Positions 1,811 through 61,185 of a stretch of 64,000 nucleotides of DNA are shown here, piece after piece; the first letter of the stretch is position 1; every line of letters starts with the position of its first letter. The notes beneath the pieces are model-generated. The model did no database searches. It saw only the letters and a list, made by a program, of their open reading frames with translations, and was not told the origin of the DNA. Source of the DNA: Candidatus Poribacteria bacterium. GTDB lineage: Bacteria > Poribacteria > WGA-4E > WGA-3G. Location of the stretch: NCBI GenBank assembly GCA_003635255.1, contig PYJC01000090.1, positions 7,880 through 71,879 of the forward strand, written 5' to 3'. The position numbers and the translations under genes were made by a program.

Positions 1811-4294
1811 CTAATGATCGTGTCCGTGATCTGATGCTTCTGGATCGTCGCCGTACATTGGCTCTTTCGCCGAACGGACGACCCATTCTTCAAAGACAGA
1901 TTTGAAGGATTTTGCCCTCTCTCCGAAGTGGAGGTATTGGATGCTGTTGACTGGCACCGATATCTCTCCGTAGATTGACGAGCGTCCCTGCAGTTTTCCG
2001 TCTTTGATTTCAAGCGGTTCAAAAATGAAAATTGGATTGTCCGTCAACGTAACGCGGACCTCAGATTGAACGGCTGTCGGTTCTCGGGGACCCTCGGCTT
2101 TCAGGAAAAGCGGTTTTTGTTCATCAATTCCGTCTTTTGACTCACGGTTGTTACCGATGACTTCAACGACGCGTGACACCCGATCTATGGGAACAGTGAA
2201 TTTCCGTAATTTTGAATCAAACTGGATCGTCTGTTTATTGATACCCAAGAGTTTTCCGCGTTTCAAATCGCCATTGTTCGCCACGAGGATATGGTTCGGT
2301 GGATTATCACGACTGAAACGTGGGACGGTTAACGCCCGTTCTAATTTTGCGTCAAGCCGTCTACCTCTCGTTTCAAGGGGATCAAAAATAAGTTCAACGC
2401 CTCGCTTAAGGGCAACAGCATCGTTGACAGCAAAGTTTCCGTCAACCTTAACCAATTTCGGCTGTTCCTCTTTTTTGTCGGAAAGTATAATTATTTCGAC
2501 TGCCCCATCTTTGGTCTTGCGTGTCACAGCGTTCAAAATCCGACCGTCTTCAAGTATGACGCGATGCTTACCTTTTCCGCCTGTGATCGTAATGGGATTC
2601 CGATTTTCCGTTCTCGCCTGCACTTTTCCACCGAAGAACTCAATACCTTTCACATACATTGAAGATAGGTGCTGCATCCGAATAAAAGGTGATCGAAAAC
2701 CGATACTTGTTTCATCATACGATGAAATTTGACACGGAATGACTTCTCCATTCTTCAGATGCAACAGATGGGGAAACTGTTCTATGTCAAAAGGTTTCTG
2801 TTTTAATACACGTTTCAAAGACCGCTCTACACGCGCCTCGCGGGCGTTCGCCAACCGAACCGCTCCAGATGCTCCGACAGGTTGCCATCGAAGATCAACA
2901 GCATCTTTGCTGCCAAATAAGATATGACCGCGGAGGCTCCCAGACTCATAAAACAATTTATCATACTCTTCAACGGGTGTTTGCGTGTCGGTTGTTGACT
3001 CGAACTTAAGCACCGAAGCCCCTGCCAGCGAGCAACTTATCGGTTTGTCCGCGAACGCAGTCTGTAGCAACACGCTATCGGGGGTCAAACGTATAATCTG
3101 TCCACGCAAAACGGCACCGTCAATATATGTCAATGCTAAAGGCTGAGGTGTCGGCTTCAACGTAACATCCGGTTGAACGATGCGATCAATCTGTTGCAAA
3201 TCGATATTTTGTCGCGTCCCATCCGTATCAAGCACATAACTTTGGTTTCCGTCAACAAATAACTTACCCGGAACCAACGCTCCGTTCATCATGTGGATCC
3301 GGGATTTGGAAGCATCAATTTGTCGGTTTGTAACCTCAGTAGATTGTCGATAGATCCTTAACCGTTGCACTGTAAGATCTTGCCCGCGGTTAAAGATGTA
3401 GACCCCAGAAGCCTCGACAGTCGGTTTAACACCGTCCAATTTCAATAGCAAATTGCCATTCAAGTCAAGTACCTTCAGTATACCCGTGTTTTCATCACCC
3501 GTATTTTCATGATAGACGATCCGCAGCCGGAAATCCCGTCGGTCTGGTTGAATTGTCAACACAGGTTCAAAGAGGGTGCCTTGAACAACGACGAGTTCGT
3601 TGACCCATGTTTCCAAACGTACTGTTTCGTATAGGTTCTTACCGAGCGCGAAAACAAAGCTGGGAGGTCGCGCGGTAGATGACAACTCCAGATCAACCTC
3701 AAAATGCTTGGGCCAGCCGAGCGCGTAGAAGATGTTTGCCTTGGCGGTGCTTGTCTGCGGACGACCACCGCGATCGGGATGCCAACTCGGTTGTGCCTCT
3801 TGTGCGAACGGACCCACCTTTTCGTCTTTATCTTGCTCAGGGAGTTTCCAAGCCGTTAATTGGGAGCCGTCAAAGAGAAGATTGGAGTGCTCCCGACTCT
3901 CAAGCGTATAAATCATGTCTCGATTCACGCGAAACTGACCGTGCCGCTTGCTGGAAAAAAGAAACGTGTTATCATCTGAACTGATGAGGTCAGCCATCCA
4001 GATATCGCCGGATACCGTACCGACGCGAAAAGCCTCCGTTGCTGACACCGACTGTTTCGGAAAAACAATTGCGTCCAATACATCGGCATCAATAACAAGG
4101 GTATCCGAAAAATGTGGTGATGCCCAGTGAATTTTTCCCTCTTTCCCCGGTTCGCTTTCCAAGAGTTGACCGGGAAGGGTATCGCCATTTTTCCAGTGCA
4201 GTAGTGTTTCCGTTTCTTCAGCCTGTATTGTGGAAATCCACAACAGCATCAGTCCTACGATTGCGGCAAGTATCTTTTTTTGATTCCACTGCAT
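1811..4294 (-). CDS. large secreted protein built from repeated ~45-aa beta-type modules; function unknown
   Basis: 827-aa ORF with GGAG 7 nt upstream of the ATG and a signal-peptide-like N-terminus (ILAAIVGLMLLWISTIQA-EE). Recurrent module x-NG-x-x-[LIV]-x-G-x-L (HWKNGDTLPGQL, HMMNGALVPGKL, HLKNGEVIPCQI, VANNGDLKRGKL). No catalytic motif recognised. Confidence 0.8.
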   Translation of the reverse strand: MQWNQKKILAAIVGLMLLWISTIQAEETETLLHWKNGDTLPGQLLESEPGKEGKIHWASPHFSDTLVIDADVLDAIVFPKQSVSATEAFRVGTVSGDIWMADLISSDDNTFLFSSKRHGQFRVNRDMIYTLESREHSNLLFDGSQLTAWKLPEQDKDEKVGPFAQEAQPSWHPDRGGRPQTSTAKANIFYALGWPKHFEVDLELSSTARPPSFVFALGKNLYETVRLETWVNELVVVQGTLFEPVLTIQPDRRDFRLRIVYHENTGDENTGILKVLDLNGNLLLKLDGVKPTVEASGVYIFNRGQDLTVQRLRIYRQSTEVTNRQIDASKSRIHMMNGALVPGKLFVDGNQSYVLDTDGTRQNIDLQQIDRIVQPDVTLKPTPQPLALTYIDGAVLRGQIIRLTPDSVLLQTAFADKPISCSLAGASVLKFESTTDTQTPVEEYDKLFYESGSLRGHILFGSKDAVDLRWQPVGASGAVRLANAREARVERSLKRVLKQKPFDIEQFPHLLHLKNGEVIPCQISSYDETSIGFRSPFIRMQHLSSMYVKGIEFFGGKVQARTENRNPITITGGKGKHRVILEDGRILNAVTRKTKDGAVEIIILSDKKEEQPKLVKVDGNFAVNDAVALKRGVELIFDPLETRGRRLDAKLERALTVPRFSRDNPPNHILVANNGDLKRGKLLGINKQTIQFDSKLRKFTVPIDRVSRVVEVIGNNRESKDGIDEQKPLFLKAEGPREPTAVQSEVRVTLTDNPIFIFEPLEIKDGKLQGRSSIYGEISVPVNSIQYLHFGERAKSFKSVFEEWVVRSAKEPMYGDDPEASDHGHDH

Positions 4295-4312
4295 TGTTTT
4301 TCTCCATTTTTT

Positions 4313-4392
4313 ATCAGTTACCAGTTACGAGTTACCAGTTTCCAGTTATAAGTCCCGCTTTAACTGGAAACTGGACACTGGTGACTGGTAAT
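4313..4392. repeat. inverted heptamer arrays forming a ~35-bp imperfect hairpin
   Basis: Left arm cagttac cagttac gagttac cagtttc cagttat; loop aagtcccgct; right arm taactgg aaactgg acactgg tgactgg. Lies in the 116-nt gap between two co-directional genes. Confidence 0.9.
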
Positions 4393-4410
4393 TATTTTTC
4401 TGATCGCTAT

Positions 4411-5481
4411 TTATCGCTCGTAAATGGGTAATAGGCGGTAATTCAGTGCCAAAGTGAGGACAGCCATTCCAGTAGCGTAGGCAGAGCCATAGCTGCTTGT
4501 GAAACTCCCGTCTTCTTTCTGCATGCCTTGGAGTCGCTCAATGATCCGTCGATTCCAAGATTGCCATGCTTCAAAGTCGCTTTGAAAGAGTGCCTGTGCC
4601 ATGTAGTACAGATTATAGAAGGCGTACCCACTGTGTGTACTTTGATCCATTCGACGCTTGATGTACTCAGAAGCGGACTTGTACTCTGGGGTATCTTTCC
4701 GCTTTCCGATTGCATAAACGAGTGTTCCGATCGCTGTCCGAGTGACTCCGTCGCCATGGCTGCTCATAGGTTGATAAGAGACACCCCCGCCCCGCATCGT
4801 GCAGGTTTGAAAAAACGTCAACGCCTTATCAATGGCTTCATTGGGGACCTCAATGCCAGCGTTTCGTGCGCCGAGCAATCCCATGAGGACAGTTCCAGAG
4901 ACAGTCGTGTCGGCATCCTGAGACTCCGGTGAGTATCGCCACGCCCCCCAAGGGTTCTTTTTTTGTGCTGTTAATGCACACCGCACGGCGAGTTCCAGTG
5001 CCTTACCGATTGTACGTCGCCGATTCGCCGGGACTTCACTCCCTTTCCAGAGTAGTTCTTCGCTGACTGCACCGTACGCTTCGGAGAGTGCTAACATCGC
5101 GAACCCGTGATGGTACATTGACCCGTGTCCGTATCCCGTCATGTATCCGGTTTTGGGATTCTGATTCATGATCATATTGCGCAAAGCCTTACGGATATTT
5201 GTGGCATAAGGCCCGTAATCCGGGTCTTCACCGCTCGCCATAAATGCCATGACACAAATCCCTGTAATCCCTGCGCCGTTTTGTCCACCTGGCCAGCTGC
5301 CATCCTGCAGTTGTGCGTTAGCGAGATACCGCAAACTCCGGTCATTGATACTTCTGACCGCTGCCGGGACACCCGTGCCGTAGCGGATTGTGGGGTCCTG
5401 TGCGTAAGTGGGTGTAATGGAAAATGTGCCGACCAACATAAAAAAAATGGAAAATCCGATAATGGGTGTGTGTTTATTCAT
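4411..5481 (-). CDS. secreted prenyltransferase / squalene-oxidase-repeat (terpenoid-cyclase fold) protein
   Basis: 356-aa ORF with a signal peptide (FFMLVGTFSITPTYA-QD). Two Q-x-x-DGS[WF] repeats (AQLQDGSWPGG, MQKEDGSFTSSYG) and aromatic-rich helices typical of this repeat family. Confidence 0.7.
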   Translation of the reverse strand: MNKHTPIIGFSIFFMLVGTFSITPTYAQDPTIRYGTGVPAAVRSINDRSLRYLANAQLQDGSWPGGQNGAGITGICVMAFMASGEDPDYGPYATNIRKALRNMIMNQNPKTGYMTGYGHGSMYHHGFAMLALSEAYGAVSEELLWKGSEVPANRRRTIGKALELAVRCALTAQKKNPWGAWRYSPESQDADTTVSGTVLMGLLGARNAGIEVPNEAIDKALTFFQTCTMRGGGVSYQPMSSHGDGVTRTAIGTLVYAIGKRKDTPEYKSASEYIKRRMDQSTHSGYAFYNLYYMAQALFQSDFEAWQSWNRRIIERLQGMQKEDGSFTSSYGSAYATGMAVLTLALNYRLLPIYER

Positions 5482-13084: not shown

Positions 13085-13160
13085 CCCTCTGGAACGCTAT
13101 TAGTGGCTTCCCGCAAACTCAAGAGGGTTTTGTGGGTTTCAAGGTTTCTGCCTAAGGTCC

Positions 13161-13181
13161 GGTGCGGTTACAAACCGCACC
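13161..13181. repeat. palindromic hairpin GGTGCGGTT-aca-AACCGCACC
   Basis: Perfect 9-bp stem followed by ctaccagcctgggg. A second copy lies at 38028..38048. Confidence 0.8.
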
Positions 13182-13210
13182 TACCAGCCTGGGGCCCGCG
13201 AGGGGTGTTT

Positions 13211-16200
13211 CTACCTTCCCTCTAAAGTGTTGAAATAAGCGTCCAACCCTTGGCGAAATTCCTCCGGCAAGACACGTCCTGCTTTGCCTGTTGCCTGTCT
13301 GGGTGCCCGATTTTCGATGAAGGCACCACTGCTATCGTCACCAAGTCCCATGAGCCTCAAAGCAGCAGCTGTCGCGGGTGGTGCTGTTGTTACCATAGGC
13401 GTATTGGGGAGTCGGCACGTTTGAAGCAAGATTTCAATCACTTCCGTTATCGCTGCAATCGCTTTGGGACCCGTATCGGGTTCCGCGAGGATGTCCTCTA
13501 CCTCATCCATAACCGCTGCGGCTGCCATTACCTTCGCGAGTTGCTGTTGGATTCGCCCCTCCTGAGCGTTAGGCAAAAGGCTGATTTGTGCTGCGATTTC
13601 ACGGGTATCCTCAGTGAGCGTAATTTGCGTATCGTACAAGTCAACACTGCGCTCCTCGTATTTATCAGTGGTCAGTGCTTCCTTCGCCTGCTCAAGTTCG
13701 CGCGTCTCTTCCCGCAAGGTGATCTCGCGATCAATGATACGCAACACTTCCAAGACGATTTCCGGCGGTAGATTCGGCAAGTTCACCATACCACCTTCTG
13801 GAGGTGGCGCATCCGGGAGCGGATCTACCAACTGCTCAGCCCATCGATCGAGTGTATCTGCCCAGAATTCTGCCTCAATGGTGGATTGTCCGACAAAATT
13901 CTTGTTAATCGCTTTTGCTATGTCTTCCATCTGGTTTGATACAAGTGCGTCCTGCATCTCCGAAAGTACACGCAAGTAGTTCGACGAGGGGCGGCGATCA
14001 GAATAAGCCACCATGTCTTGTATGATAGTAGATACCGCCTCAGACTCGTTGGTCTCCCGTTCCGCCAAACGTACCCGACGGGACTGATTTTTGGTAACGT
14101 TGCGTTCAAGACCGAAACTATCGAGATCGTTTAGGTCTACTGCGATGTCAATCTGTTTTCGTGAAGCGGCTTTTAGGCGTTTGACGAAGGTACTGTTCTC
14201 AAAACTGACGAGTAACCTGCCCATCTCTTCTGCGAGTTTGGCGAAGGCATCCAGTAACTCTTGCTGTTCTTCGACAGCTTCAATGACGAGGTCTGCTGCC
14301 TCAGGTGCCGATGTCTCTTCGTCTTCTTCGTTTTCTTTGTCTCTACCGCTCCCCTTAAGCATAGTGGTAGGGATACCGAGACCGCCGACGATCTGTGGTG
14401 GCTGTCCTTCCGCACTCTCACCTTCGTTGAATCCGGATTCAACATCAGAGACAGTAGGTGTCGGATTCGCAGGCGCGTAACCCGGCTTACCGTCCGGCTG
14501 TTTGCTCCGATTGACGCTGACCCCTGCCCCTGGCGTGTTCGGATCTTCCGGGGTTTCGTCCAATCCTTCAGGCGGCACTATACTGTCAGGTCCGTACTTC
14601 TCTACCTCTTCCGAATTACTGGGTTCACCGCGAGAAAGCGAGGGGGGTCCCTGTGTTGACGGCTCTCCCTGTTGCCCGGTATTATTATCCGTAGATTCAC
14701 CTGCAGCATCGGCTTCAGCGGTGCTTCCGGGTGCCTCAGCGGCACGTGCAAGTAGGTCGGCAACAGAGGGCATTCTCTGTCGAGCGATTTCTTCCAACTC
14801 CTCTAATATTTCGCCCCACGATTCAAGCTGCTCTGCATCAAACTCCTCATTCTTTGCGGCTTCTTGAACCAACTCTTCACCGGTTTCGATCAAACTGTCG
14901 AGTCTTGCGGCGTTTTCACGTTCTGCGGCAGCTTGTTCTTGGATTTTCTTCCGCTGCGCTGGATCGTCAAGTGCCTCGGCGGGTAGGTCGCGTAGTTCGC
15001 GATTGACTTGGTGCAGCTGCAACTCTTTGTCGTGGACATCCTTTGCGGCACCTGCCCAGAGCTGCATCTGTCCAACCAACCACCTGAAGTGTTCTGCTGG
15101 CGTAAGCACATGGAGGACAAGGTAGGGTGAATAGATCCGCTCGCGATCGGGTAGATAGTCCTCAACATACGCACGCAATCGAAGACTCTGGGGTTTTATA
15201 TTTTCACGCTTGGCAGAAAATGTGGCAGCTACGGTTAAAGTGTCTGCCATCGGCGTACCTGCCGACACAGTTTTCTCACCGCTTGTAGGTTCGGGATTGT
15301 GGACTGGGTTGGCGATCCCCGCCCATTCCAAGCCGATCCGCTTCACACCAAAATCGTCCGTTGCTTGAATTTCAAAAGGAAGCACCTCATCAGAAATGAG
15401 GACCTGATTGTTCTTTAGTTTATTTAAGGCAACCGTTGGTTCCTCATCATCAAGTGCCTCGAATCTTAGGACTTGTGGCTCACGGGCGGAGAGTCCAAAC
15501 CGATCGCGCCATGTGAGTTGCATTTCGGTTGTCGTCTCTACAGATATGGGTTCGGTTGTTACGCGTGCGCCATCCACCTGTTGTGGACGATTGTTTAGTG
15601 TTGCTTCTGACAGTTCTCGTGTAGTGGTAGCCTCCAAAATGGCGGTGCTGCCCCTCACTAAATTCACAATCCCGCCGCGTACATCATCTACTCGGGGTTC
15701 TTGGTGTTGTAGATAATCCGGTAATTCGACTTTGGCAGTAAGATCTTTGAGCGCGGGACGCAATTTGGGTTCAACTGGGATGGCACGCTGTGCGTCTCCG
15801 ACCCGAAGCTTGACGTTCCCGTCCGCCGTTTGTGGCGGCAATTGAAATTTGTAGGTTGCGCCGTCGCGTTCGGCAACTATTGGTGTCTGATCCGCGTATC
15901 GTGCCTCCGCTGATTCAGGCTTCCACGGTGAATCGTCTTTCAATCGGGCTTCGACATCAAAGGGTTCCGCGTATGCGACGACGCGAAGCCCGGTTTCACT
16001 TTCCAACTGTGCGAAAGTGTAACGCTCCACAGCCCGCCACGGCGTTAGCCACCGAGCCAGTGTGTTTCGACTCGTTGCGGGGATCACAATTATCCCAATC
16101 ACAACCAGTATTAAGGGTATCCCTGCCACCCATGCCCAACGGCGATGTCGAGGATTTGGGACGGCATCTGCCAGATTATGCTTTGCTACCTCGGCATCCA

Positions 16201-16636
16201 CCTGACGCATCGCTGCTTCAACTAAAGCGGGACTTGCCGATTGATCCGTCCTACTGGATGCGAGTTCCACGATGCCGAGTACGTGATTGCCAAAACGTGG
16301 AAACTTATGTTGCAACAGCCGAGCGATGCCTTCTAAGCTCCGATGCTGCCAAACCCAATTATAATACTTTAGTGGCAAAAAGAGCACCATTCCCACCATT
16401 CCAGTGAGTAGAATAAGTACCCGCAAAAGCGTAGGTGTATCAAACATGCGGTCTAAGCCAAACACGACGAGATATGAGATTATGATACCGAAGATCGCTG
16501 CCAGCGACCCTTCAGCGAGTTTGATAATCCATACCCGTTTTTGGTAGTGTTCAAGTGCCGCCTTCATGCGAGGTGGCAAGTTGACTTTTTCCTGATGATG
16601 TCCACTGTCGCGTGGTTTTTCTTGTGTTTGTTTCAT
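13211..16636 (-). CDS. large membrane-anchored protein with an acidic low-complexity/coiled-coil centre, last gene of the Bat-type cluster
   Basis: The ORF track gives 13211..16651. The second ATG (16636, MKQTQEK) has AGGAAA 6 nt upstream, whereas the first ATG abuts a heptamer array with no SD. Three to four N-terminal TM helices and a D/E/P/G-rich centre (PEGLDETPEDPNTPGAG...). Confidence 0.7.
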   Translation of the reverse strand: MKQTQEKPRDSGHHQEKVNLPPRMKAALEHYQKRVWIIKLAEGSLAAIFGIIISYLVVFGLDRMFDTPTLLRVLILLTGMVGMVLFLPLKYYNWVWQHRSLEGIARLLQHKFPRFGNHVLGIVELASSRTDQSASPALVEAAMRQVDAEVAKHNLADAVPNPRHRRWAWVAGIPLILVVIGIIVIPATSRNTLARWLTPWRAVERYTFAQLESETGLRVVAYAEPFDVEARLKDDSPWKPESAEARYADQTPIVAERDGATYKFQLPPQTADGNVKLRVGDAQRAIPVEPKLRPALKDLTAKVELPDYLQHQEPRVDDVRGGIVNLVRGSTAILEATTTRELSEATLNNRPQQVDGARVTTEPISVETTTEMQLTWRDRFGLSAREPQVLRFEALDDEEPTVALNKLKNNQVLISDEVLPFEIQATDDFGVKRIGLEWAGIANPVHNPEPTSGEKTVSAGTPMADTLTVAATFSAKRENIKPQSLRLRAYVEDYLPDRERIYSPYLVLHVLTPAEHFRWLVGQMQLWAGAAKDVHDKELQLHQVNRELRDLPAEALDDPAQRKKIQEQAAAERENAARLDSLIETGEELVQEAAKNEEFDAEQLESWGEILEELEEIARQRMPSVADLLARAAEAPGSTAEADAAGESTDNNTGQQGEPSTQGPPSLSRGEPSNSEEVEKYGPDSIVPPEGLDETPEDPNTPGAGVSVNRSKQPDGKPGYAPANPTPTVSDVESGFNEGESAEGQPPQIVGGLGIPTTMLKGSGRDKENEEDEETSAPEAADLVIEAVEEQQELLDAFAKLAEEMGRLLVSFENSTFVKRLKAASRKQIDIAVDLNDLDSFGLERNVTKNQSRRVRLAERETNESEAVSTIIQDMVAYSDRRPSSNYLRVLSEMQDALVSNQMEDIAKAINKNFVGQSTIEAEFWADTLDRWAEQLVDPLPDAPPPEGGMVNLPNLPPEIVLEVLRIIDREITLREETRELEQAKEALTTDKYEERSVDLYDTQITLTEDTREIAAQISLLPNAQEGRIQQQLAKVMAAAAVMDEVEDILAEPDTGPKAIAAITEVIEILLQTCRLPNTPMVTTAPPATAAALRLMGLGDDSSGAFIENRAPRQATGKAGRVLPEEFRQGLDAYFNTLEGR

Positions 16637-16652
16637 CGAAAATTTCCTCATA

Positions 16653-16727
16653 TTGGCTATCGGCTATTGGCTATCAGCCATCAGCAAAGAACCCTCTCGC
16701 TGACGACTGGCGACTATTCCACTGATT
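16653..16727. repeat. heptamer array pair abutting the start of the 1146-aa gene
   Basis: ggctatc ggctatt ggctatc agccatc agc ... gctgacg actggcg actattc. The arms are only partly complementary. Confidence 0.8.
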
Positions 16728-18302: not shown

Positions 18303-18330
18303 TTCAGTTTTTAGTTGTCAGTTGTGCGCC
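18303..18330. repeat. short heptamer array
   Basis: cagtttt tagttgt cagttgt, just downstream of the stop at 18343. Confidence 0.7.
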
Positions 18331-18342
18331 TGTATAGATAAG

Positions 18343-20589
18343 TTATACTGCGCCTGTCATTTTTCTTGCGACCCAGAATACGCCGAGTAAAAAGATAAGG
18401 AAACCCGCCCAGATTGGGTGTGCCCAGATCCGTGTGCGATGGACAGTTGGTGCGGGTTCTGGCAAGGCTGCGAGATATTCCAATAGACTCGGCACTTCAG
18501 AAATCGGTACCAACCTACCGTCGGTAATCTTGGCAATTTCTTCTAATACATCGAAACGCGCCAAACGTCCTTGCTGCTCCCGATTTAAGCCTTGTACGGA
18601 TAGATCCGTTTGAACAGATGCCCCGGTTTCGCTACTGCTCGCCACGAGTCGATAGTTTCCAGGTTCTTTCGGTACAAACGCACCGACGAACAAACCCGTC
18701 ATATCCTCTGTACCGGGTTGCAATTGAATTGTTTGCGTTTTGCCCGATGGTGAAATCGCTTGTACAACAACTGACCCTCTGTCCAAGGGACCGCCAACGT
18801 TATCAATAGCGTTGGCATGCAACGTCAGAACATCATCAACGTTGGGTCGGTCAGGGGAGTAGAAGAGTCGTATCAATTCGCTTTGTGCCATTTGCCGTCG
18901 ATATGCCATCCACCGTGCGACCTGACTCCAGAAGCGGTAATGGTACTTATCTTCAACGCCTTGCCGCCAACGCCACGCACTGTCTGTCCCCATAAATAAT
19001 ACTTTCCCTGTGCCGTATGTTTTGGTCACGATCAGTGGTACGCGTCCGGCGGCAGTCGCCACTTGATCGTGAACTGCCAGCGTCTCGGTACCAACTTTGG
19101 CACGCTTGATGCCAGCGTACCAGAAAAATCCGGGTAATTTCCGCCATACTTCGCCGTTGTCAAGGTCTGTATCCCCAAGGCGTGTTAGCAAACTGCGCTG
19201 TCCAGACGCTGTAAGTGCGAAGTATCCCTGCATACTTGAACCGACACCTTCTGGTGTCGCTGAATCTAAGACCACAGGATAGAGGTCGGCAAGGGGACCC
19301 GAGATTAACGAATTATGCGCGCCGTCACGCCCTGGCATAAAGACGAGACCCGAGGCTTGGGCAGAAACTAATTTCCGTAATTCCCGTGTCTGTTCGACCG
19401 TCAACTGGTCCTTCTGCACGCCGACATCCCCAAGAAACACTACATCATAACGACTTAACTCTCTGGGGTCAGGAAAACGTTTAATATAAGTGCGCCCCCC
19501 GCCAACATCAGGGAGTTCGGGGTGAAAGAGGAGACATGTTACTTCAACACCCGAATCCCGTTCTAAAGCGTTTCGGAGATATCTGTACTCCCATCGCGGA
19601 TAAGATTCAATGACGAGTACTTTCAATTGTTCTTTACGTATTGATATGGGTGCGGAGATTTCATTATTTTCAGGGATCAATTCCTCTGCGTCCCGTTCGA
19701 TACGGAGATTTAGGGTATAATCCCCTGTTCCTTGTCCCTCCGCGCCCGGTGTCCAGACGATATTCTCCTGCGCCTGACTCATAGCAGGCACCCGGACCAT
19801 TTTCGTAACTGTCGCCTTCTTATTAACGCTGAGTGTGACACGGACATCCCGATCCTGTCCCAAGGTACTACGAACAACAAACGGGATCCGCAGCTGCTTG
19901 TTTGCGACACCATAGGTCGGCGCGTCCATTCTGACCAATTCGAGGTCGGGGAGTGGTACCTTGCTCCCGATGCCTATTGCAAAGACCGGAATCCCTTTCA
20001 TCCGAAACCTTGTAGCTGCCTCCACTGGCGAGTTCCCGACATTCCAATCACCGTCCGATAGCAGTACGACGCCGCGAAGGTTTGTATGCGTATCAAGCAC
20101 GTGTGAAAGTCCAGCATTCAAATCCGTTGCTTCATCTGCGGGATCCAACTGCGAAGAGAATGGCTCAAACACTATATTGAGATCGGTTGCATCTTGCCGG
20201 TTGCCATTATTGGATAGGGACCCGGCTTTCCAGACATCCTCAGACATCAGCGGTTGAATCGTTTCAGCGCGGCTCTTACGCTCACCGGAGACATCTTGAT
20301 TTTCAAAGACATCCCGCGTCTGCATACTTTTGGATTGGTCCCAGAGTACTGCGAGTGTCGAACGCCGATCCGGGGGCTGCGTCTTCAACCATTCGGGCTG
20401 ATTCAGGGTAACAACTACCAAGCCGACCAACACAAAACGCAGTAACTCAAGCCACCCTGTTTGCATACGATAGCCGCTCCGGTGCCATGCCAACCAGCAT
20501 AATACACCTGTCGCAACCACAATAATCAGTCCTAAGACCGTGATGGAATTGTTTGAGAGGAACTCTAAGCTTCCCTGTTGTTCTTGCAT
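18343..20589 (-). CDS. membrane-anchored VWA-domain protein with a C-terminal GATase1-like module (Bat-cluster component)
   Basis: 748 aa with N-terminal TM helices and a MIDAS-like D-x-S-x-S (LWDQSKSM) plus VVLLSDGDWN..VFAIGIG. The later stretch VLVIESYPRWEYRYLRNAL..VVFLGDV is GATase1-like by pattern only. C-terminal TM helix. Confidence 0.8.
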   Translation of the reverse strand: MQEQQGSLEFLSNNSITVLGLIIVVATGVLCWLAWHRSGYRMQTGWLELLRFVLVGLVVVTLNQPEWLKTQPPDRRSTLAVLWDQSKSMQTRDVFENQDVSGERKSRAETIQPLMSEDVWKAGSLSNNGNRQDATDLNIVFEPFSSQLDPADEATDLNAGLSHVLDTHTNLRGVVLLSDGDWNVGNSPVEAATRFRMKGIPVFAIGIGSKVPLPDLELVRMDAPTYGVANKQLRIPFVVRSTLGQDRDVRVTLSVNKKATVTKMVRVPAMSQAQENIVWTPGAEGQGTGDYTLNLRIERDAEELIPENNEISAPISIRKEQLKVLVIESYPRWEYRYLRNALERDSGVEVTCLLFHPELPDVGGGRTYIKRFPDPRELSRYDVVFLGDVGVQKDQLTVEQTRELRKLVSAQASGLVFMPGRDGAHNSLISGPLADLYPVVLDSATPEGVGSSMQGYFALTASGQRSLLTRLGDTDLDNGEVWRKLPGFFWYAGIKRAKVGTETLAVHDQVATAAGRVPLIVTKTYGTGKVLFMGTDSAWRWRQGVEDKYHYRFWSQVARWMAYRRQMAQSELIRLFYSPDRPNVDDVLTLHANAIDNVGGPLDRGSVVVQAISPSGKTQTIQLQPGTEDMTGLFVGAFVPKEPGNYRLVASSSETGASVQTDLSVQGLNREQQGRLARFDVLEEIAKITDGRLVPISEVPSLLEYLAALPEPAPTVHRTRIWAHPIWAGFLIFLLGVFWVARKMTGAV

Positions 20590-22895: not shown

Positions 22896-22930
22896 GAACT
22901 TTTCACCAGACTGACTGCTGATAGCCATCC

Positions 22931-34200: not shown

Positions 34201-34833
34201 CTAATTCTCTCCACTCCAAGAGAGAGGTTCATTTTGTAAGTAGGGGCGCAGCATATCACGGAGACGACGGTGTGCATGGTGCAAATGTGTTTTAATCGTG
34301 CCTTCGGATTTGTTCAAGCGGAGCGCGATCTCTTTAATCGGGAGATCCTTCCGATAGCGGAGTTTAAAGACGCGCTGCTGTCCGGGTGAGAGTTGGCGAA
34401 CCGCTTTACGAATAATACGTCTAAATTCTTCATTCTCAAGCGTTTCAGAAGGCGACGGGTATGCACGGGCCATGGGAAGTTCATCGTCCGCGTCGAAGGG
34501 TAATTCCTCAAATATCAGAACTTTCCGCCGATTCTGTTTGCGCTGGAAGTCAATGCTGCAATTGACAGCGATTTGGTAAAGCCAACTGTAAAACGCGGCA
34601 TCTTGCTTGAAGTGAGGTAGTGCCCGAAACGCTTTGAGAAAAACATCTTGGCAGAGGTCTTTCGCTGTTTCCCGGTCGCGAACGCGGAGGTAAATTAGAT
34701 TGTAGATTTTTTGTTGGTATTTGAGAACCAGCGGGTTAAAAGCCTCTATGTCCCCGTTTTGAACCCGTTCAACTAATTCACTGTCCTCAATGTTTTCTAA
34801 TTCGGTTTGCATGGACTGTTTAGTGTTTGTCAT
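34201..34833 (-). CDS. ECF-subfamily RNA polymerase sigma-70 factor
   Basis: 210 aa with region 2 (DLCQDVFLKAFRAL..YSWLYQIAVN) and region 4 HTH (LPIKEIALRLNKSEGTIKTHLHHAHRRLRDML). GGAG SD. Confidence 0.9.
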   Translation of the reverse strand: MTNTKQSMQTELENIEDSELVERVQNGDIEAFNPLVLKYQQKIYNLIYLRVRDRETAKDLCQDVFLKAFRALPHFKQDAAFYSWLYQIAVNCSIDFQRKQNRRKVLIFEELPFDADDELPMARAYPSPSETLENEEFRRIIRKAVRQLSPGQQRVFKLRYRKDLPIKEIALRLNKSEGTIKTHLHHAHRRLRDMLRPYLQNEPLSWSGEN

Positions 34834-34852
34834 GTTGTTTGCTCCAAATGTT

Positions 34853-34880
34853 ATAGTTTTCAGTTGTCAGTTTTCGGTAG
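34853..34880. repeat. short heptamer array in the ECF sigma factor 5' leader
   Basis: tagtttt cagttgt cagtttt cggtaga, 20 nt upstream of ATG 34833. Confidence 0.7.
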
Positions 34881-35075: not shown

Positions 35076-36533
35076 CTACGCCTCGGTTTCCGCTTCTACT
35101 TCATTATCATGCATAATCTCTTGCAGACCAGTAGCGATGCGGAAAGCGGCGATAGAGATACCGATTGAGATAGCGAATAACCACCGATAACCGATATACC
35201 GTGCGAGAGCACCACCTAACACTGGTGCGAAACTTACGGGCATGAGCAATGTGTTCATAAAACCGATATAAGTCGGGCGGTTTCGTGGGGGTGCGATGTT
35301 CAGCATGTATGCCATGAAACCGACCATCATGCCGTTCCCCAAAATACCGCCGACGATGAAAATTAGCAAAAAGGCTGGCATTTGTAAGGACACTGGTAAT
35401 ACACCTGAAGAAAAGGCGATTGCGGGAGGGATCCCCATCAACCCTGCGGTGATAATCAGGAGCCATCGTACGCCATACTTCTCACCAACATATCCCCACA
35501 TTGTGTTTGAAATCACACCGCTCAACGCGGAACAGACAATAAAAAAGCCTATCGTTGCCTCAGAAAGTCCGAGTCCGTCTAGGGCGTAAGGGATATAAAA
35601 GGGAGATGCCATCCCAGAGAGGTGCCCAAAGACGCGGAAAAAAATAAAACGTCGGTAATTTGCGTCTGTCCGGAGGAAATGGGGTCCCTGTTTTAAATGT
35701 TCTGAAATAGGTTGCCGTGTCGGTTGGACAGGATGAATCGGTTCACGGACACCTAAGAAACTGACGAATGAAAGAAACGCTGCGGTCACCGAACAGATAA
35801 AGAGAAAGGCGTAGTTATAGGGAAAACCGAGATCCGTATCCACATTACAGATAGAACCGATGAAATACATCGTAAATGTTTTGAAGGTTTGCGTAATACC
35901 CCCCAGTATACCCGTAAATTCGTCTTCGTTTCCGAGGACAGCACGCACGAGGAACCCTACCCAGATGGCGAAAAAACCGCCGTACAGTTGTCGTAAACTA
36001 AAGAAACGGGCGCGCCGCTGAGGTTCTATTGATTTGGAGACGATATCCATGTAAGGGAGCGTCGAAACGCCCATAGCGGAGGAAGACAAGAAATAGAATC
36101 CGAGAAAACAGGCGGCGAGCAACATCGGGTTTTGTTCACCAATTGTGATGGTGCAGAAAAAGACGGCGAGCCATGCCAAAACGCGGACGCTCATACCGAG
36201 TGCGTAAAACGGCATTTTGCGTGGACGGTGTTCCAGTAGGTTGGACATCAACAGTTGGGGCCACATCCAGCCTGCTGTCATCATTGAACCGGTTAAACCT
36301 ACGAGAAGATCCGAGCCGCTTAACTTATGGATAAAAGCAGGGAGCACCGTCGCTGAATCCGCAAACGCGAGATTGATACGCATGAAGGTGCCTTGGAGCA
36401 GCGCAAATCGGAAGTTTCGCCGTTGGATTTTTAATTTACCTTGCGGTTCGGTGTTTTTTAATTTACCTTGCGGTTCGGTCAGGTTGCTCTGATTGATAAG
36501 TTCAGTTTCCGTAGTTCCGCCTTGAACGTTCAA
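35076..36533 (-). CDS. MFS transporter (true start uncertain)
   Basis: About 12 predicted TM helices. The N-terminal ~35 codons of the longest ORF (TTG start) translate two tandem copies of the leader repeat (TEPQGKLKNTEPQGKLK). The conserved pre-TM1 motif RRNFRF follows immediately and has no canonical in-frame start between them (only ATC at 36428). Confidence 0.8.
   Translation of the reverse strand: MNVQGGTTETELINQSNLTEPQGKLKNTEPQGKLKIQRRNFRFALLQGTFMRINLAFADSATVLPAFIHKLSGSDLLVGLTGSMMTAGWMWPQLLMSNLLEHRPRKMPFYALGMSVRVLAWLAVFFCTITIGEQNPMLLAACFLGFYFLSSSAMGVSTLPYMDIVSKSIEPQRRARFFSLRQLYGGFFAIWVGFLVRAVLGNEDEFTGILGGITQTFKTFTMYFIGSICNVDTDLGFPYNYAFLFICSVTAAFLSFVSFLGVREPIHPVQPTRQPISEHLKQGPHFLRTDANYRRFIFFRVFGHLSGMASPFYIPYALDGLGLSEATIGFFIVCSALSGVISNTMWGYVGEKYGVRWLLIITAGLMGIPPAIAFSSGVLPVSLQMPAFLLIFIVGGILGNGMMVGFMAYMLNIAPPRNRPTYIGFMNTLLMPVSFAPVLGGALARYIGYRWLFAISIGISIAAFRIATGLQEIMHDNEVEAETEA
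36429..36480 (-). promoter_or_regulatory. two tandem copies of the leader module (plus a truncated third at 36547..36562) at the 5' end of the MFS gene
   Basis: The minus strand reads gaccgaaccgcaaggtaaattaaaaaa-caccgaaccgcaaggtaaattaaaaa-tccaacggcga. Confidence 0.7.
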
Positions 36534-36704
36534 GGCTATGTTTTTGTTTTTTAATTTACCTTAATGCATGCAAAATTCTGCACCTTATCTTTTGACACAA
36601 TTTTCGCAATTAGGTTGAATTGAAATTTCCATCGTCTGTCGGAACGGGAATAAAATTTTGTTTACAGGGTGCCGAGGTTGTGCTAAATTGCGTACAAACT
36701 TTTC

Positions 36705-36847
36705 TAATAGTTGTTAGTTATGAGTTGTTGGTTTTTAGTTACCATCTTGTGGCGTTCAATGTTCTTGTGGATGCCACAGCATATCTCAACGCCACAGCAC
36801 AGTAACTAATAACTTATAACTAATAACTTATAACTAATAACCACTAA
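36705..36847. repeat. inverted heptamer arrays flanking a structured core, ending at the SD of the Gfo/Idh/MocA gene
   Basis: Left arm tagttgt tagttat gagttgt tggtttt tagttac. The core holds nested hairpins TTGTGGCGTT...AACGCCACAG and TGTGG-atg-CCACA. Right arm agtaact aataact tataact aataact tataact aataacc. Confidence 0.9.
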
Positions 36848-36858
36848 AGGAAACAGAT

Positions 36859-37806
36859 ATGGAACCTCTTCGGATTGGATTTCTCGGTGCCGGTGGTTTC
36901 GCGCGGCACACCATTTATCCCGCACTTCATCTCGCCCCAGTCGCATTGCAAGCCGTTTGTGATGCAGACGAAAATCGTGCCAAGGACGCTGCTGGTAAAT
37001 TCGGCACGGGTAGATATTACACCGATCGGCACGAAATGTTTGAAAAAGAAGACTTAGAAGCAGTGATTATTTCTATGGGGCCTGACCCGAGGCAGCCGCT
37101 TGTGCTTGAAACGCTTGCGGCGGGATATCATGTATTCACGCCAAAACCGCCTGCACCATCTCTCGAAGAAACAATTGCTTTGGCAGAGACCGCAGAAAAA
37201 CACGGTAAGACACTCATGGTGAACTTCCAACGGCGGTTCAGTCTTGGTGTACGAGAGGCGAGGCGGATTATGCAGACCGAATCCTTTGGTACACTTACAC
37301 AACTTTTCTGCTCGTTCTGTAGTGGGAAGTATCCGACAGTCAAAAGTTATCTGCTCGATTTTGCGATTCACCACTTCGATCTGGCGAGGCACATCGCTGG
37401 CGCGGATGTGAAAGAACTCTGCGTTTTCCACAATGAAGTGGATGGGCAAGGCGCATTCGCTGTTAGCGTAGAATATACCAACGGTGCAGTCGGAAGTTTG
37501 CAGCTGAGCAGCCAACGGTTATGGCAGCGCAACTATGACTACATCGAAATTACCGGTCAGCACGAATACATCGTTTTAGACGGGTTATGGGGTGCTCAAC
37601 ACTTCACCGAATCTGGGAATAGCTTCACCTCAAACTTTTCTGATCAACGAAATGGCGAATTGACGGGGGATGGTATCAGCCTTACTGAGTTTGCCAACGC
37701 GATTCGTGAGGATCGAGAACCGGTATCAAGTATCCAAGACTGCGTCGGTACCATGCGGTTCTACGATGCTGTCCTTCAGCGTAAAAAAGGCGTTATTAGC
37801 CTTTAG
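36859..37806 (+). CDS. Gfo/Idh/MocA family oxidoreductase
   Basis: 315 aa with a Rossmann N-terminus (RIGFLGAGGFARH). AAAGGAAA SD 5 nt upstream. Confidence 0.9.
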   Translation: MEPLRIGFLGAGGFARHTIYPALHLAPVALQAVCDADENRAKDAAGKFGTGRYYTDRHEMFEKEDLEAVIISMGPDPRQPLVLETLAAGYHVFTPKPPAPSLEETIALAETAEKHGKTLMVNFQRRFSLGVREARRIMQTESFGTLTQLFCSFCSGKYPTVKSYLLDFAIHHFDLARHIAGADVKELCVFHNEVDGQGAFAVSVEYTNGAVGSLQLSSQRLWQRNYDYIEITGQHEYIVLDGLWGAQHFTESGNSFTSNFSDQRNGELTGDGISLTEFANAIREDREPVSSIQDCVGTMRFYDAVLQRKKGVISL

Positions 37807-38027
37807 CAATCGGCTTTCAGCCTTCAGACTTATCACATAGGTCAGGTCGAACGGCGTTGAACAGTCAGGTGTTGCTGTTCTAAACATACGCCAAATCCAA
37901 TATGCTACCATATACACTACAGATCAGTTGATTAGTGCACTCACTCTTCGTTAGACACATAGCGACTTTCGTAGGCGCGCTTTGATGAAGATTAATTTTT
38001 TAATTCGGTAATTTCTTAGGGATGCCC

Positions 38028-38048
38028 GGTGCGGTTGCAAACCGCACC
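38028..38048. repeat. palindromic hairpin GGTGCGGTT-gca-AACCGCACC (second copy)
   Basis: Same stem as 13161..13181. A related tail, accgaacctaccggtcctgggg, is at 38268..38289. Confidence 0.8.
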
Positions 38049-38261: not shown

Positions 38262-38347
38262 TAGGAAACCGAACCTACCGGTCCTGGGGAAGATATGGAA
38301 TTACCGAAATATTTTCTTAAACTTCATGCAAGCGCGCCTTATTTCTT

Positions 38348-39810: not shown

Positions 39811-40959
39811 TTACTCTTCTCCTTTGGCTAAAATATCAGCATAGAGGCTTAAATAAGCGTCGGCAATGTTTTTCCAATCGTATGGTTTGACGCGTTCAAC
39901 ACTCGCTTCGCCCATTTCAATGCGACCTTCGCCAGCGTTAATCAGTTTAACAAGGCAGTGCGCGAGTCCATCAACATCGCCGGGATCGAACAGTGCGCCG
40001 TTAACCCCGTCCGCCACGAGTTCATCGATACCTTGAACACGACTGGCAACGATCGGAAGCCCTGTCCCCATCGCTTCCAAAACGACGAGCGGCATTCCTT
40101 CCGCGAGTGAGGGTAAAATTAAGAGGTCGGCATTGCGATACTTTTGTGGCAATTTCGGATATGGTACTGAACCCGCAAAGTGGATATGTGACACTACGCC
40201 GAGATTTTCCGCTAATTTCAGGAGTTCTCCGTGATACGGTCCATCACCGACGATTTCAATTTCAAAGTTGTACGCTGCTTTTTCAATAATCTGCGGAAGT
40301 GCGCGGATTAGAAATTGAAAACCTTTGCGTGGAATCAGTCTTCCGATTGTGAGGACGCGAACCTTTTTCGGGCAGGCATCGCGTTGCACCGGCGCGAACG
40401 TTTCTAAATCTACAGCATCGGGAATCACCTTTATTTTTACATCAGCATCCGTTTCTCGTGCGAGTTCTCGTAACCCGTCGCTACACGAGACAACAGTTGC
40501 CGCGTTGCGCCAGATCGCTCGGATAACGGGTTTCAGTAGCAGGTATAACCACCGATAATAGGATGGATCCGGATTGCGGCTCGGTACGTCGCGTCCGCCC
40601 AAAAATACGACATACGGCACGTTGCGGAGCTTTTGTAGAAGATACGCACCACCCCCCGCAGGAATCCCAAAAAAGACTTGAACGATATCGGGTTGAAACT
40701 GTTTAGCGAACCGGAATCCGTAGAGGCTTGAGCTTATCGCGTAAGTCAGCATCTCGTGTACGGCACATATATCCGGGCTTTTCCGTAGCGCGCGCACGCG
40801 ATGGACATGAACCCCTTCCACTTCTTCGTTTTTTGGACAATCACGAAACTGTGAAGTAATCAGATGGACATCGTGTCCTGCTGCCGCATAGTGTTTGCCT
40901 AAAAAATGACTGACCCAACCGCCGCCGCCACCAATCGGTGGAAATTCGTGATTGAACAT
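39811..40959 (-). CDS. GT4-family glycosyltransferase
   Basis: The ORF-track start 41043 reads through leader repeats. The probable start is ATG 40959 (MFNHEFPPIGGGGG) or TTG 40962. The EX7E motif is present (AEGMPLVVLEAMGTGLPIVAS). Confidence 0.9.
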   Translation of the reverse strand: MFNHEFPPIGGGGGWVSHFLGKHYAAAGHDVHLITSQFRDCPKNEEVEGVHVHRVRALRKSPDICAVHEMLTYAISSSLYGFRFAKQFQPDIVQVFFGIPAGGGAYLLQKLRNVPYVVFLGGRDVPSRNPDPSYYRWLYLLLKPVIRAIWRNAATVVSCSDGLRELARETDADVKIKVIPDAVDLETFAPVQRDACPKKVRVLTIGRLIPRKGFQFLIRALPQIIEKAAYNFEIEIVGDGPYHGELLKLAENLGVVSHIHFAGSVPYPKLPQKYRNADLLILPSLAEGMPLVVLEAMGTGLPIVASRVQGIDELVADGVNGALFDPGDVDGLAHCLVKLINAGEGRIEMGEASVERVKPYDWKNIADAYLSLYADILAKGEE

Positions 40960-40964
40960 CAATA

Positions 40965-41015
40965 TTTTTAAATTTCCTTGCGGTTCGGTTTTTTTAAATT
41001 TCCTTGCGGTTCGGT
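40965..41015 (-). promoter_or_regulatory. two perfect tandem 25-nt copies of the leader module before the GT4 gene
   Basis: tttttaaatttccttgcggttcggt at 40965..40989 and again at 40991..41015. The minus strand ends ...accgaaccgcaaggaaatttaaaaatattgATG. Confidence 0.8.
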
Positions 41016-41055
41016 TAGGTGGGTTTGACACTTGAAGTCTCATTCCGTAGAGTCG

Positions 41056-44760: not shown

Positions 44761-45567
44761 TTACGATCTTTCCGCTGCTAACGATTCCAGTTTCGCGAGT
44801 GCTTCTTGTTCTTCCTTCTGCCATGGACGGTGTGCTGGTTTATCCAGTTTTTGTGGGGGACCACCGAAGACGAGGATGTATGCCCTACGTGCTTCCGCTG
44901 TGCTATTCGGTGCGGAATAGTGTAAAGTCCGACAGTGGTGGAATGTTGCACCGCCTGCCGGTATCGGACATGCAACCGCCTGTGATACGTCAACGTCATC
45001 TGTCACTAACCCGTGTACGAGCGGATCATTGTCAATATGCCGATGCCAACGGACCTCTCCCTTGTGCGATTCCGGGATGAATTGGAGACACCCACTCTCA
45101 AGCGTCGCTTTATCAAGCGGAAGCCAGACACTTAGGCTATGCGGTAGGACTTCGGGATTCCAGTATGCTTCGTCTTGATGCCACGGCGTTTCATTGCCGT
45201 AGTGAGCGGGTTTCAGAATCATGTGTCCGCCACCGCTGACTTTTTCAGTTGCTACGCTGAGTAACTTCGCTGCAAGCCGATGCGCGTTTTGGAAATAGAC
45301 CGTCTCGCGGAGTTCAGGGAATTGTGCTTCCGGTCCCAATACTTGTGGTAACGTCTCCTGTCCGTTGTGTGCACGCGGACCCGCAAGATCGAAATAACGT
45401 CCTTGCGCTTCTCCGGTTCGCCCCGTGAAGAGTTCATCGTAAATACCCTTGAGCCATTCGATCTCTTCGTCCGTCGTGATGCGCGGGATGCTCAGGTATC
45501 CATTCTCTTGAAAGAAAGCGACCTGTTCGTCAGTTACATCAACGTGAAAATCATTCTTAGATTTCAT
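44761..45567 (-). CDS. phytanoyl-CoA dioxygenase (PhyH) family Fe(II)/2-oxoglutarate oxygenase
   Basis: 268 aa with PWHQDEAYW (H-x-D) and a distal His in ATFHHCRTLHYS. Confidence 0.9.
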   Translation of the reverse strand: MKSKNDFHVDVTDEQVAFFQENGYLSIPRITTDEEIEWLKGIYDELFTGRTGEAQGRYFDLAGPRAHNGQETLPQVLGPEAQFPELRETVYFQNAHRLAAKLLSVATEKVSGGGHMILKPAHYGNETPWHQDEAYWNPEVLPHSLSVWLPLDKATLESGCLQFIPESHKGEVRWHRHIDNDPLVHGLVTDDVDVSQAVACPIPAGGATFHHCRTLHYSAPNSTAEARRAYILVFGGPPQKLDKPAHRPWQKEEQEALAKLESLAAERS

Positions 45568-45668: not shown

Positions 45669-45764
45669 AACCCCCTAAATCCCCCTTATCAGGGGGACTT
45701 TAAGAGGAAATGCGTAAGTCCTACTTATCAGGAGGACTTTAAAGAGGAAATGCGTAAGTCCTAA
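45669..45764 (-). terminator. repeat family A (two tandem sub-units) with a CCCCCT-gata-AGGGGG hairpin directly after the sppA stop; terminator-like
   Basis: The minus strand reads TAG-gacttacgcatttcctc..aaagtCCCCCTgataAGGGGGatttaggggg, with a T-rich tail after the stem. The ~40-nt sub-unit cttatcagg(g/a)ggacttt(a)aagaggaaatgcgtaagtccta occurs twice. Confidence 0.55.
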
Positions 45765-48220: not shown

Positions 48221-48273
48221 CAGTTGTCGGCTGTTGGTTAGAGAGGTCTCTTGTAACCGATAACTGATAACCC
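48221..48273. repeat. inverted heptamer hairpin inside the ORF-free region
   Basis: cagttgt cggctgt tggttag agag-gt-ctct tgtaacc gataact gataacc. Confidence 0.75.
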
Positions 48274-55020: not shown

Positions 55021-55035
55021 GATTTCATTAGTTAT

Positions 55036-55145
55036 CAGTCGTCAGTCGTCAGTTTTCAGTTAAGAGGTGTCGGGGTTACCGAAAGGTGTTTGGTGAATCC
55101 GAGCCCGCTTGTAACTGATAACTGTTAACTGTTAACTGACAACTC
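55036..55145. repeat. inverted heptamer arrays between hslV and hslU; the right arm overlaps the hslV stop
   Basis: Left arm cagtcgt cagtcgt cagtttt cagttaa; ~45-nt core; right arm gtaactg ataactg ttaactg ttaactg acaactc. The TAA stop of hslV is at 55125..55127, inside the array. Confidence 0.9.
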
Positions 55146-60645: not shown

Positions 60646-60647
60646 AA

Positions 60648-60956: not shown

Positions 60957-61185
60957 TAGCCGTCAGCGTCAGCAATCAGCAGTCAGAGGATTAGCCGTCA
61001 GCGGTCAGGGCGGTCAGAAAAGAGATGTTAGATTTATCTACGGGGAAATACCGTTTTTGCTTGGGGTCTTTGATAGGGTGTTTCTGTGTATTTCTTCTAA
61101 GCAAAAATACCGCTCTTTGCTGATGGCTGATGGCTGACAGCCATTCTTGCTGATAGCCGATGGAGAACTGATAACCGACAGCTGT
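60957..61185. repeat. composite element: inverted (agcNgtc)n / (gctgaNg)n arrays flanking a copy of the tttttgcttggg core
   Basis: Left arm agccgtc agcgtc agcaatc agcagtc ... agccgtc agcggtc; core 61051..61097; right arm gctgatg gctgatg gctgaca ... ctgataa ccgacag. Lies between the MNT stop and the thiG start. Confidence 0.85.
61051..61097 (+). repeat. repeat family B core, copy 5 (inside the composite element before thiG)
   Basis: ccgtttttgcttggggtctttgatagggtgtttctgtgtatttcttc. Confidence 0.75.

Follow-up and report, generated by a model that had tools for sequence, protein, structure and literature searches.

Palindromic elements built from two facing arrays of tandem heptamers recur between the genes of a 64,000-nt stretch of DNA from a Candidatus Poribacteria bacterium (assembly GCA_003635255.1, contig PYJC01000090.1, positions 7,880 to 71,879 of the forward strand), which we call the window and whose coordinates are used throughout. 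They form one family of palindromic intergenic repeats with a fixed architecture, of the type known in cyanobacteria as short tandemly repeated repetitive sequences (STRR), and related Poribacteria have acquired, lost or exchanged them at corresponding sites. As to what they are, we favor, at a probability of roughly 45%, the reading that they are propagating palindromic repeats acting as non-terminating stem-loops between cistrons.

Architecture of the heptamer palindromes

The elements were analyzed in the window and in a comparative set of 80 loci of ~21 kb each around hslU, taken from different Poribacteria (cited by L number); HslU of the window (53533-55020) is 99% identical to HslU of Candidatus Poribacteria genomes from sponge symbionts. 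Tandem Repeats Finder detected period-7 arrays at 4311, 4362, 16651, 18304, 36708/36803, 48254, 55030/55112 and 60958/61119, with 2.7-5.6 copies (the consensus of 55112-55144 being TAACTGA), and a separate period-7 scan added the arrays at 34851 and 37810. The intergenic DNA of the window (9,786 nt) contained 11 period-7 arrays versus 0.29 +/- 0.52 expected from 200 dinucleotide shuffles, which never gave more than 2, so that chance is excluded as their source. In the same DNA, periods 5, 8 and 10 were at the shuffle background, period 6 was modestly enriched (7 versus 2.6 +/- 1.7) and period 9 yielded one array. Across 1.6 Mb of Poribacteria DNA including the window, 62 of 80 period-7 arrays were intergenic, even though coding sequence makes up 83% of this DNA; the corresponding share was 18-30% for periods 4-6 and 8, which are well sampled. 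Both counts confirm an intergenic enrichment of period 7, whose absence from a genome-wide scan the preliminary description of this DNA had named as a refutation. The array density was 1.28 per 10 kb in the clade of the window versus 0.16 per 10 kb in a distant clade (L050-L080). Outside Poribacteria, Nostocales and marine Beggiatoaceae are heptamer-rich, and Beggiatoa alba is heptamer-poor.

The eight array sites previously listed (4313, 16653, 18303, 34853, 36705, 48221, 55036 and 60957) are all real, and the additional runs near 22907 and 25351 are present but weak, with only ~2 units. The inverted pairing of arrays also held, at 4311, 36705, 48221, 55027 and 60957, and is weak at 16650. 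A search of the whole window against Rfam at the gathering threshold returned no matches.

We denote the CAGTT-type orientation as R and the AACTG-type orientation as F. The architecture common to the window and the 80 loci is 5'-(YRGTTNN)n, an AAGAGG...CCTCTT apex and (NNAACYR)n-3'. All 26 classifiable adjacent pairs, from ~18 independent sites, were R...F and none was F...R; this handedness is independent of gene direction, because an R...F pair reads R...F on both strands. Solitary arrays obey the same order, with 33 R versus 13 F beside stop codons and 14 F versus 4 R beside start codons; arrays in the forward orientation close to a start, solitary or not, include those at 4311, 34851 and 55027. 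A palindrome recurs between the arms, ...CAGTTAAAGAGG-loop-CCTCTTAACTG..., and about 18 of 38 unique flanks have, by inspection, AAGAG no more than ~20 nt away from where the array ends on the inner side. At the other extremity, 14 of 23 unique ends had T[AG]GTT as their outermost unit, so that the termini resemble ATAGTT...AACTAT. The unit type varies by element (AACTGA, AACTGG, AACTAA, GCTGAT/GCCGAT or ACCAAC), and the commonest unit, AACTGAT (50 counts), is a rotation of TAACTGA. Small hairpins are nested in the arrays: GGGTTTTCGTAGAAAACCC occurs at two unrelated loci, and GGATTACTGCGTAATCC recurs after hslU, with two copies in L029. The places of these nested hairpins are 11511-11529 in L015, 6934-6952 in L008, and ~20 nt past the hslU stop in L029, L041 and L046-L048.

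The first example, at 4311-4391, was found by the inverted-repeat search as two 31-nt arms (4318-4348 and 4361-4391) with 87% complementarity. The arms quoted in the preliminary description are present where it had placed them; they are 12 nt apart, and that description gave a 10-nt loop. On the minus strand, the 4349-4360 junction reads CAGTTAAAGCGGG, with the family apex CAGTTAAAGAGGG at one mismatch. Both flanking genes lie on the minus strand (upstream 4411-5481, downstream 1811-4294), as co-directional as had been described; the upstream gene has its stop end at 4411, 19 nt away from arm 2, and the downstream gene has its ATG at 4292-4294 and a Shine-Dalgarno (SD) sequence, GGAG, at 4302-4305, with a TAACTGG/TAACTGA array immediately 5' on the minus strand. 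Read along the gene strand, the site consists of the stop, 19 nt, TTACCAG TCACCAG TGTCCAG TTTCCAG TTA, then AAGCGGGACTTA, followed by TAACTGG AAACTGG TAACTCG TAACTGG TAACTGA and finally TAAAAAATGGAGAAAAACA-ATG. The minus-strand RNA of 4295-4410 is predicted to fold at -41.8 kcal/mol versus -18.6 +/- 3.5 for shuffled sequences (z-score -6.7). Similarly strong predicted folds were obtained for 36703-36850 (-54.5 kcal/mol, z -9.4) and for the minus strand of 55021-55150 (-44.8 kcal/mol, z -5.8), in agreement with the long hairpins described earlier; 48215-48282 gave z -3.3, and the fold of 16652-16725 was not significant (z -1.7).

Turnover and slow divergence at orthologous sites

The comparison of presence and absence at orthologous sites, which had been proposed as a check, revealed differences at the hslV/hslU spacer, after hslU, at the 4313 site and ~4 kb upstream of hslU. 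The hslV/hslU spacer is occupied by an AACTGA-type palindrome in the window and no fewer than 13 relatives (14 were extracted, and L044 has it too) and by a GCTGATA-type palindrome in L017, L021, L030, L037 and L039; in other genomes it contains an unrelated hairpin or is short and plain. The spacer after hslU is plain in the window and carries three or four different heptamer palindromes in other genomes. In the distant clade, no element is present at the 4313 site, and ~4 kb upstream of hslU, L001 and L002 have an element that the window lacks. Where orthologous arms differ in length, they do so by whole 7-nt units (3 or 4 units versus 4 or 5).

This turnover, together with an apex and termini that are conserved across unrelated sites, is what would be expected of purely selfish or neutral mobile DNA without host function, resembling a MITE (miniature inverted-repeat transposable element) or a doublet of repetitive extragenic palindromic (REP) sequences forming a hairpin (REPIN), with heptamer-built terminal inverted repeats. 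The MITE idea had been raised in the preliminary description, and the inverted terminal arms, often ATAGTT...AACTAT, are indeed MITE-like. Other observations point the same way: small hairpins such as GGGTTTTCGTAGAAAACCC are nested in arrays at two unrelated loci, elements stand in every intergenic context, there is no RNA-strand signature, TA flanks many element ends, and the same family is present in distant phyla and on plasmids. However, the copies have architecture rather than sequence in common, being alike only in unit type and apex, and no near-identical copies were seen. We found no clean insertion with a target-site duplication either: the comparisons of filled and empty versions (L024 with L027, the window with L001) always revealed replacement or rearrangement. 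A scan of 20 proteins of the window detected neither a transposase nor a domain of the REP-associated tyrosine transposase (RAYT, Y1 transposase). Finally, the elements diverge ~2-fold more slowly than synonymous sites and the neighboring ordinary spacer. A purely selfish origin is, on this balance, somewhat unlikely.

The slow divergence was observed for elements of several types. In the AACTGA-type palindrome between hslV and hslU, the divergence was 0.10-0.13 for the loop, which has no indels, and 0.09 for the F side, versus 0.35-0.41 at synonymous third positions. The corresponding values were 0.111 versus 0.193 for the palindrome after hslU (L015 group) and 0.102 versus 0.181 for the GCTGATA type between hslV and hslU, whereas a plain non-heptamer spacer at the same locus, used as a control, gave 0.226 versus 0.173. 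Persisting elements thus diverge about half as fast as synonymous sites, and they are conserved beyond neutral expectation, though without base-pair covariation.

The loop of the hslV-hslU palindrome contains GGGTTCACCAAACACCTTTCGGTAACCCC (55072-55097 and orthologues), which has no indels across 15 genomes and is able to form a small stem, the antisense being an ACC-GAAA-GGT tetraloop hairpin. This loop was not found elsewhere in the loci.

Termination, translation starts and base pairing

Strong hairpins near stop codons could be intrinsic terminators or attenuators, and attenuation was among the roles suggested in the preliminary description. However, none of the elements carries a U-tract on the gene strand, where the 3' flanks are A-rich, and the terminator scan made no terminator-like call on any hairpin (4313, 16653 and 18303 named). 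In addition, one element lies between hslV and hslU, within the operon, and others stand a few nucleotides ahead of start codons. Intrinsic termination was therefore rejected and is, in our estimate, extremely improbable for these elements.

Palindromes of the opposite handedness do look terminator-like. In metagenomes we counted at least 84 F...R palindromes of the form (GAACTGA/AAACTGA)n...(TCAGTTC/TCAGTTT)n (contigs L096-L175), a count that covers F...R only (the matching R...F pattern would be CAGTTNNCAGTTNNCAGTT-N(3-33)-AACTGNNAACTGNNAACTG). The contigs listed have 42-69% G+C, and the palindromes occur in 17 convergent, 28 co-directional and 2 divergent contexts. Because their 3' arm is U-rich, they fit a 3'-end, terminator-like role. 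They also disprove the notion that R...F is a universal handedness. In viral contigs of IMG/VR, 10 R...F palindromes and no F...R palindromes were present. From these counts we infer that handedness decides termination, R...F being the form able to live within operons.

At the hslV-hslU junction, versions with and without an element differ in the sequence before the translation start. Element-free versions have GGAGG 7 nt ahead of the TTG start of hslU. The AACTGA-type versions have no SD between the arm and the TTG, with 9 nt separating the end of the F arm from the TTG (55020); the stem has GGAGGAG at its 5' foot, and its CAGTT-type R arm overlaps the last ~20 nt of hslV. In the spacer after hslU, the palindrome-bearing versions lack the GGAGGG that is present in plain versions. 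The element thus replaces the downstream SD at two sites, before hslU and before the gene after hslU, and the SD-less hslVU arrangement is consistent with translational coupling. A precedent exists in phage T4 genes 38 and 25, in which a hairpin bridges the SD and the start, and the stem-loop restores a functional spacing. The hslVU stem resembles these genes in that GGAGGAG stands at its 5' foot, with the TTG start 9 nt past its 3' foot, a likeness that is an analogy only and concerns one site.

In the reading that we prefer, a small palindromic seed would spread, and the stem-proximal heptamer would expand through replication slippage. The R...F order would leave an A-rich 3' arm on either strand, so that transcription would not terminate and the element would be tolerated within operons. 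In operon mRNA, its 5-bp helices, separated by 2x2 internal loops, would build a long stem that brings the upstream stop near the downstream start, and this stem-loop between cistrons would act as a stabilizer and/or a translation coupler. For hslV-hslU, ribosomes completing hslV would open the outer stem, giving access to the SD-less hslU start. The elements may plausibly influence the stability, processing or coupling of mRNA; stability and processing were among the roles suggested in the preliminary description.

Several observations weigh against this reading. An ordinary SD is retained at the 4313 and 34851 sites and in hslVU versions of the GCTGATA type, so SD replacement is not general; other elements lie between divergent genes (36705 and the site ~4 kb upstream of hslU) or convergent genes (L053). 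Coupling is therefore at most a local use of the elements. Base pairing between the arms is not maintained at the two variable positions of each unit: complementarity at the variable positions was 70% in register versus 64% and 59% when shifted by 7 and 14 nt, and only 1 of 33 pairs was compensatory in the alignment of 14 orthologues. The arm mismatches on the gene strand at 13 sites were divided into 32 G-U-type and 30 A-C-type without sense bias, and, by minimum free energy (MFE), folding of the antisense strand is often equal to or stronger than that of the sense strand. The slow divergence could reflect homogenization among units instead of selection.

These tests also disposed of two more specific ideas. 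The arms as precise inverted duplications, or as co-evolving sequences, were rejected on the barely specific register and the 1/33 compensatory pairs. Selection on sense-strand RNA pairing came out negative, as the MFE comparison was mixed and the DNA-level mismatch count was unbiased (32 versus 30); the consensus structure of one family has 15 G-U-type versus 4 A-C-type variants. The pairing of the arms rests on the common 5-nt core, and because pairing at the variable positions is not maintained, the stems are stacks of conserved 5-bp helices with small internal loops.

A bolder proposal is that the R...F palindromes are a dedicated operon device, a non-terminating stem that would replace the SD and bridge the stop and the start, making translation of the second gene depend on that of the first. 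Machinery common to Poribacteria, Nostocales and Beggiatoaceae would spread and maintain the elements, and handedness would set the outcome, with R...F reading through and coupling and F...R terminating. We consider this quite unlikely.

Alternatively, the heptamers may be iterated protein-binding sites, with a 5-nt core (AACTG/CAGTT) every 7 nt and the hairpin as a by-product. The conserved core, and the two variable positions that drift without co-variation between the arms, are in line with this idea, as are the solitary arrays that adjoin starts, mostly in the TAACTGA orientation (14 versus 4), and the SD-less starts directly behind arrays at 16651 and 55020. Start-adjoining arrays also occur in Beggiatoaceae, essentially without inverted partners (PMC4679880). 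However, the AACTGA, GCTGAT, AACTAA and ACCAAC families coexist, even at one orthologous site, and this coexistence of several unit families is hard to reconcile with a single sequence-specific reader. No candidate protein was identified, and the strict R...F pairing of the arrays is left unexplained. Protein-binding sites, whether read by an RNA-binding regulator (S1, Csp or CsrA-like, MacGregor's proposal) or by a DNA-binding or nucleoid protein, are an unlikely explanation.

Other features of the window and known repeat systems

The elements of the window are listed in Table 1.

Table 1. Heptamer-array elements of the window.
Feature	Coordinates	Strand	Description
First example, arm 1	4311..4348	+	(CAGTTAC)-type, R orientation
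First example, loop/apex	4349..4360	.	12 nt
First example, arm 2	4361..4391	+	TAACTGG AAACTGG ACACTGG TGACTGG; 87% complementary to arm 1
GCTGATA/GCCGATA-type array	16650..16716	-	Abuts ATG (16651) of gene 13211-16651, no SD
Solitary 3-unit array	18303..18326	+	TCAGTTT TTAGTTG TCAGTTG; 16 nt from stop end of gene 18343-20589
Solitary array	34851..34878	-	Gene strand AAACTGA CAACTGA AAACTAT
Long palindrome, divergent genes	36705..36847	.	Arms 36705-36745 (TAGTTGT-type) and 36800-36847 (TAACTAA/TAACTTA)
Short TCAGCNT-type array	37810..37831	+	3 nt past stop of gene 36859-37806
Short palindrome	48221..48272	.	Near-consensus apex GGTTAGAGAGGTCTCTTGTAACC
hslV-hslU intercistronic palindrome	55027..55145	-	CAGTT-type and TAACTGA-type arms, 45-nt conserved loop
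GCTGATG/TCAGC-type inverted arrays	60957..61142	+	122 nt apart

The inverted partner of the 16650 array (16698-16716) is short and weak. The 34851-34878 array lies directly 5' of the SD and ATG of an extracytoplasmic function (ECF) sigma factor gene (34201-34833), and the loop of the 36705-36847 palindrome contains a second hairpin. The 60957-61142 arrays are placed between an MNT nucleotidyltransferase gene (stop 60953) and thiG (start 61202). This gene is part of a HepT/MNT-type toxin-antitoxin pair (60274-60953; NTase_sub_bind and Polbeta nucleotidyltransferase) upstream of thiG. The place of the HepT/MNT module is taken in L001 and L002 by thiS, which stands immediately before thiG, indicating that the module and the adjoining heptamer arrays are a strain-specific insertion or rearrangement.

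Repeats of other kinds are also present. At 59477-59623, period-9 units form a palindrome, (CACAGAGGA)x2 facing (TTCTCCGCG)x3, whose 41-nt arms have 73% complementarity and are separated by 65 nt; it represents another kind of hairpin made of inverted tandem arrays. A dispersed intergenic repeat with the REP-like core palindrome GGTGCGGTT-NNAA-AACCGCACC occurs at 13145-13194, 37982-38048 and 38266-38339, and at 6159-6278 in L001; it adjoins a ...tttgatgaag(a/t)ttaa...ttcggtaat... segment, and the window and L001 copies are at non-orthologous places. Similar motifs, ccggtaggttcggtt, lie downstream of hslU in L020 and L035. Perfect tandem duplications of a similar 26-27-nt unit, TTTTTAA(T/A)TTNCCTTGCGGTTCGGT, were found at 36428-36479 and 40965-41016, near the 5' ends of the minus-strand genes 35076-36533 and 39811-41043, and a related motif, accgaaccgcaaggaaaa, is upstream of hslU in L028 and L034. 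A 40-nt unit is repeated twice (95% identity) at 45685-45763, in the spacer between genes 44761-45567 and 45761-47578 (SppA-like peptidase S49).

Among known repeats, the cyanobacterial STRR are a close parallel. In heterocystous cyanobacteria, STRR hairpins lie between hupS and hupL and upstream of hoxW, and a function in transcript stability or translational coupling was proposed for them (PMC2670836). The Poribacteria elements are likewise dispersed intergenic tandem 7-nt units whose inverted arrays form hairpins between co-transcribed genes, in a host that is not a heterocystous cyanobacterium. The preliminary description was right to draw this link, which is closer than it claimed, since the same CAGTTAC/GTAACTG inverted arrays occur on Nostoc plasmids; it erred in taking the inverted pairing for a departure from STRR, because the hupS-hupL STRR hairpins had already been published (PMC2670836). 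When the 4305-4395 element was compared by blastn with 72,556 plasmids, the only matches were in Nostocales (Nostoc, Brasilonema and Annamia), and the Nostoc plasmids carry CAGTTAC...GTAACTG palindromes in R...F order as well as many more inverted pairs of heptamer arrays. Neither of the two Nostoc examples read showed the AAGAGG...CCTCTT apex. The canonical STRR1-3 units are CCCCAGT, TTGGTCA and CAACAGT. As tandem dimers, none of them occurs in the window or the 80 loci, and only the CAGT core is in common. On the Nostoc flagelliforme plasmid pNFSY08 (L083-L085), the inverted pairs include GGGGAAA...CCCTTTA, GGCAGGA...CTGCCTC and AATTCGC...GCGAATT; handedness is constant for each type, and every G-rich pair read begins with its G-rich arm.

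TAACTGA direct repeats near starts, often without a ribosome-binding site, are known from Beggiatoaceae, some Cyanobacteria and Bacteroidetes (MacGregor 2015, PMC4679880). The Poribacteria arrays resemble them in being intergenic, in standing in the forward orientation just before starts, often without a canonical ribosome-binding site, and in a commonest unit that is a rotation of theirs. Unlike the Beggiatoa genome studied, which has 169 direct sets and 1 inverted set (PMC4679880), most Poribacteria arrays are halves of palindromes, and arrays in the CAGTT orientation follow stops.

REP sequences, bacterial interspersed mosaic elements (BIME) and REPINs are intergenic palindromic repeats that form inverted doublets, often within operons (PMC3116915). 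REPs are short and G+C-rich, with near-identical copies and a RAYT, whereas the Poribacteria elements are A+T-rich, variable heptamer arrays. REP stem-loops are transcribed and able to stabilize the upstream mRNA. Tiny hairpins within tandem heptamer arrays of Nostoc, called small dispersed repeats (SDR), were reportedly described by Elhai et al. in 2008; GGGTTTTCGTAGAAAACCC and GGATTACTGCGTAATCC within heptamer arrays resemble the SDR in this arrangement.

In our literature search, no paper connected Poribacteria with heptamer, STRR, REP or MITE repeats. Since STRR hairpins and TAACTGA repeats have already been published, the elements are a known kind of repeat in a new host lineage; what this analysis adds is the description of the apex and termini, together with the strict handedness, turnover and slow divergence. 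In cyanobacteria, such heptamer repeats have been on record since ~1990. The patchy range of the TAACTGA/CAGTTAC family, earlier comprising Cyanobacteria, Beggiatoaceae and Bacteroidetes, is extended here to Poribacteria, in which 80 related genomes with differences at the same sites offer a ready comparative data set. The arrays are likely to trouble the assembly and annotation of sponge-symbiont genomes. For the family as a whole, avoiding or providing termination may be what fixes the orientation of the palindromes, which is strict within a lineage (26:0 in Poribacteria and 10:0 in IMG/VR).

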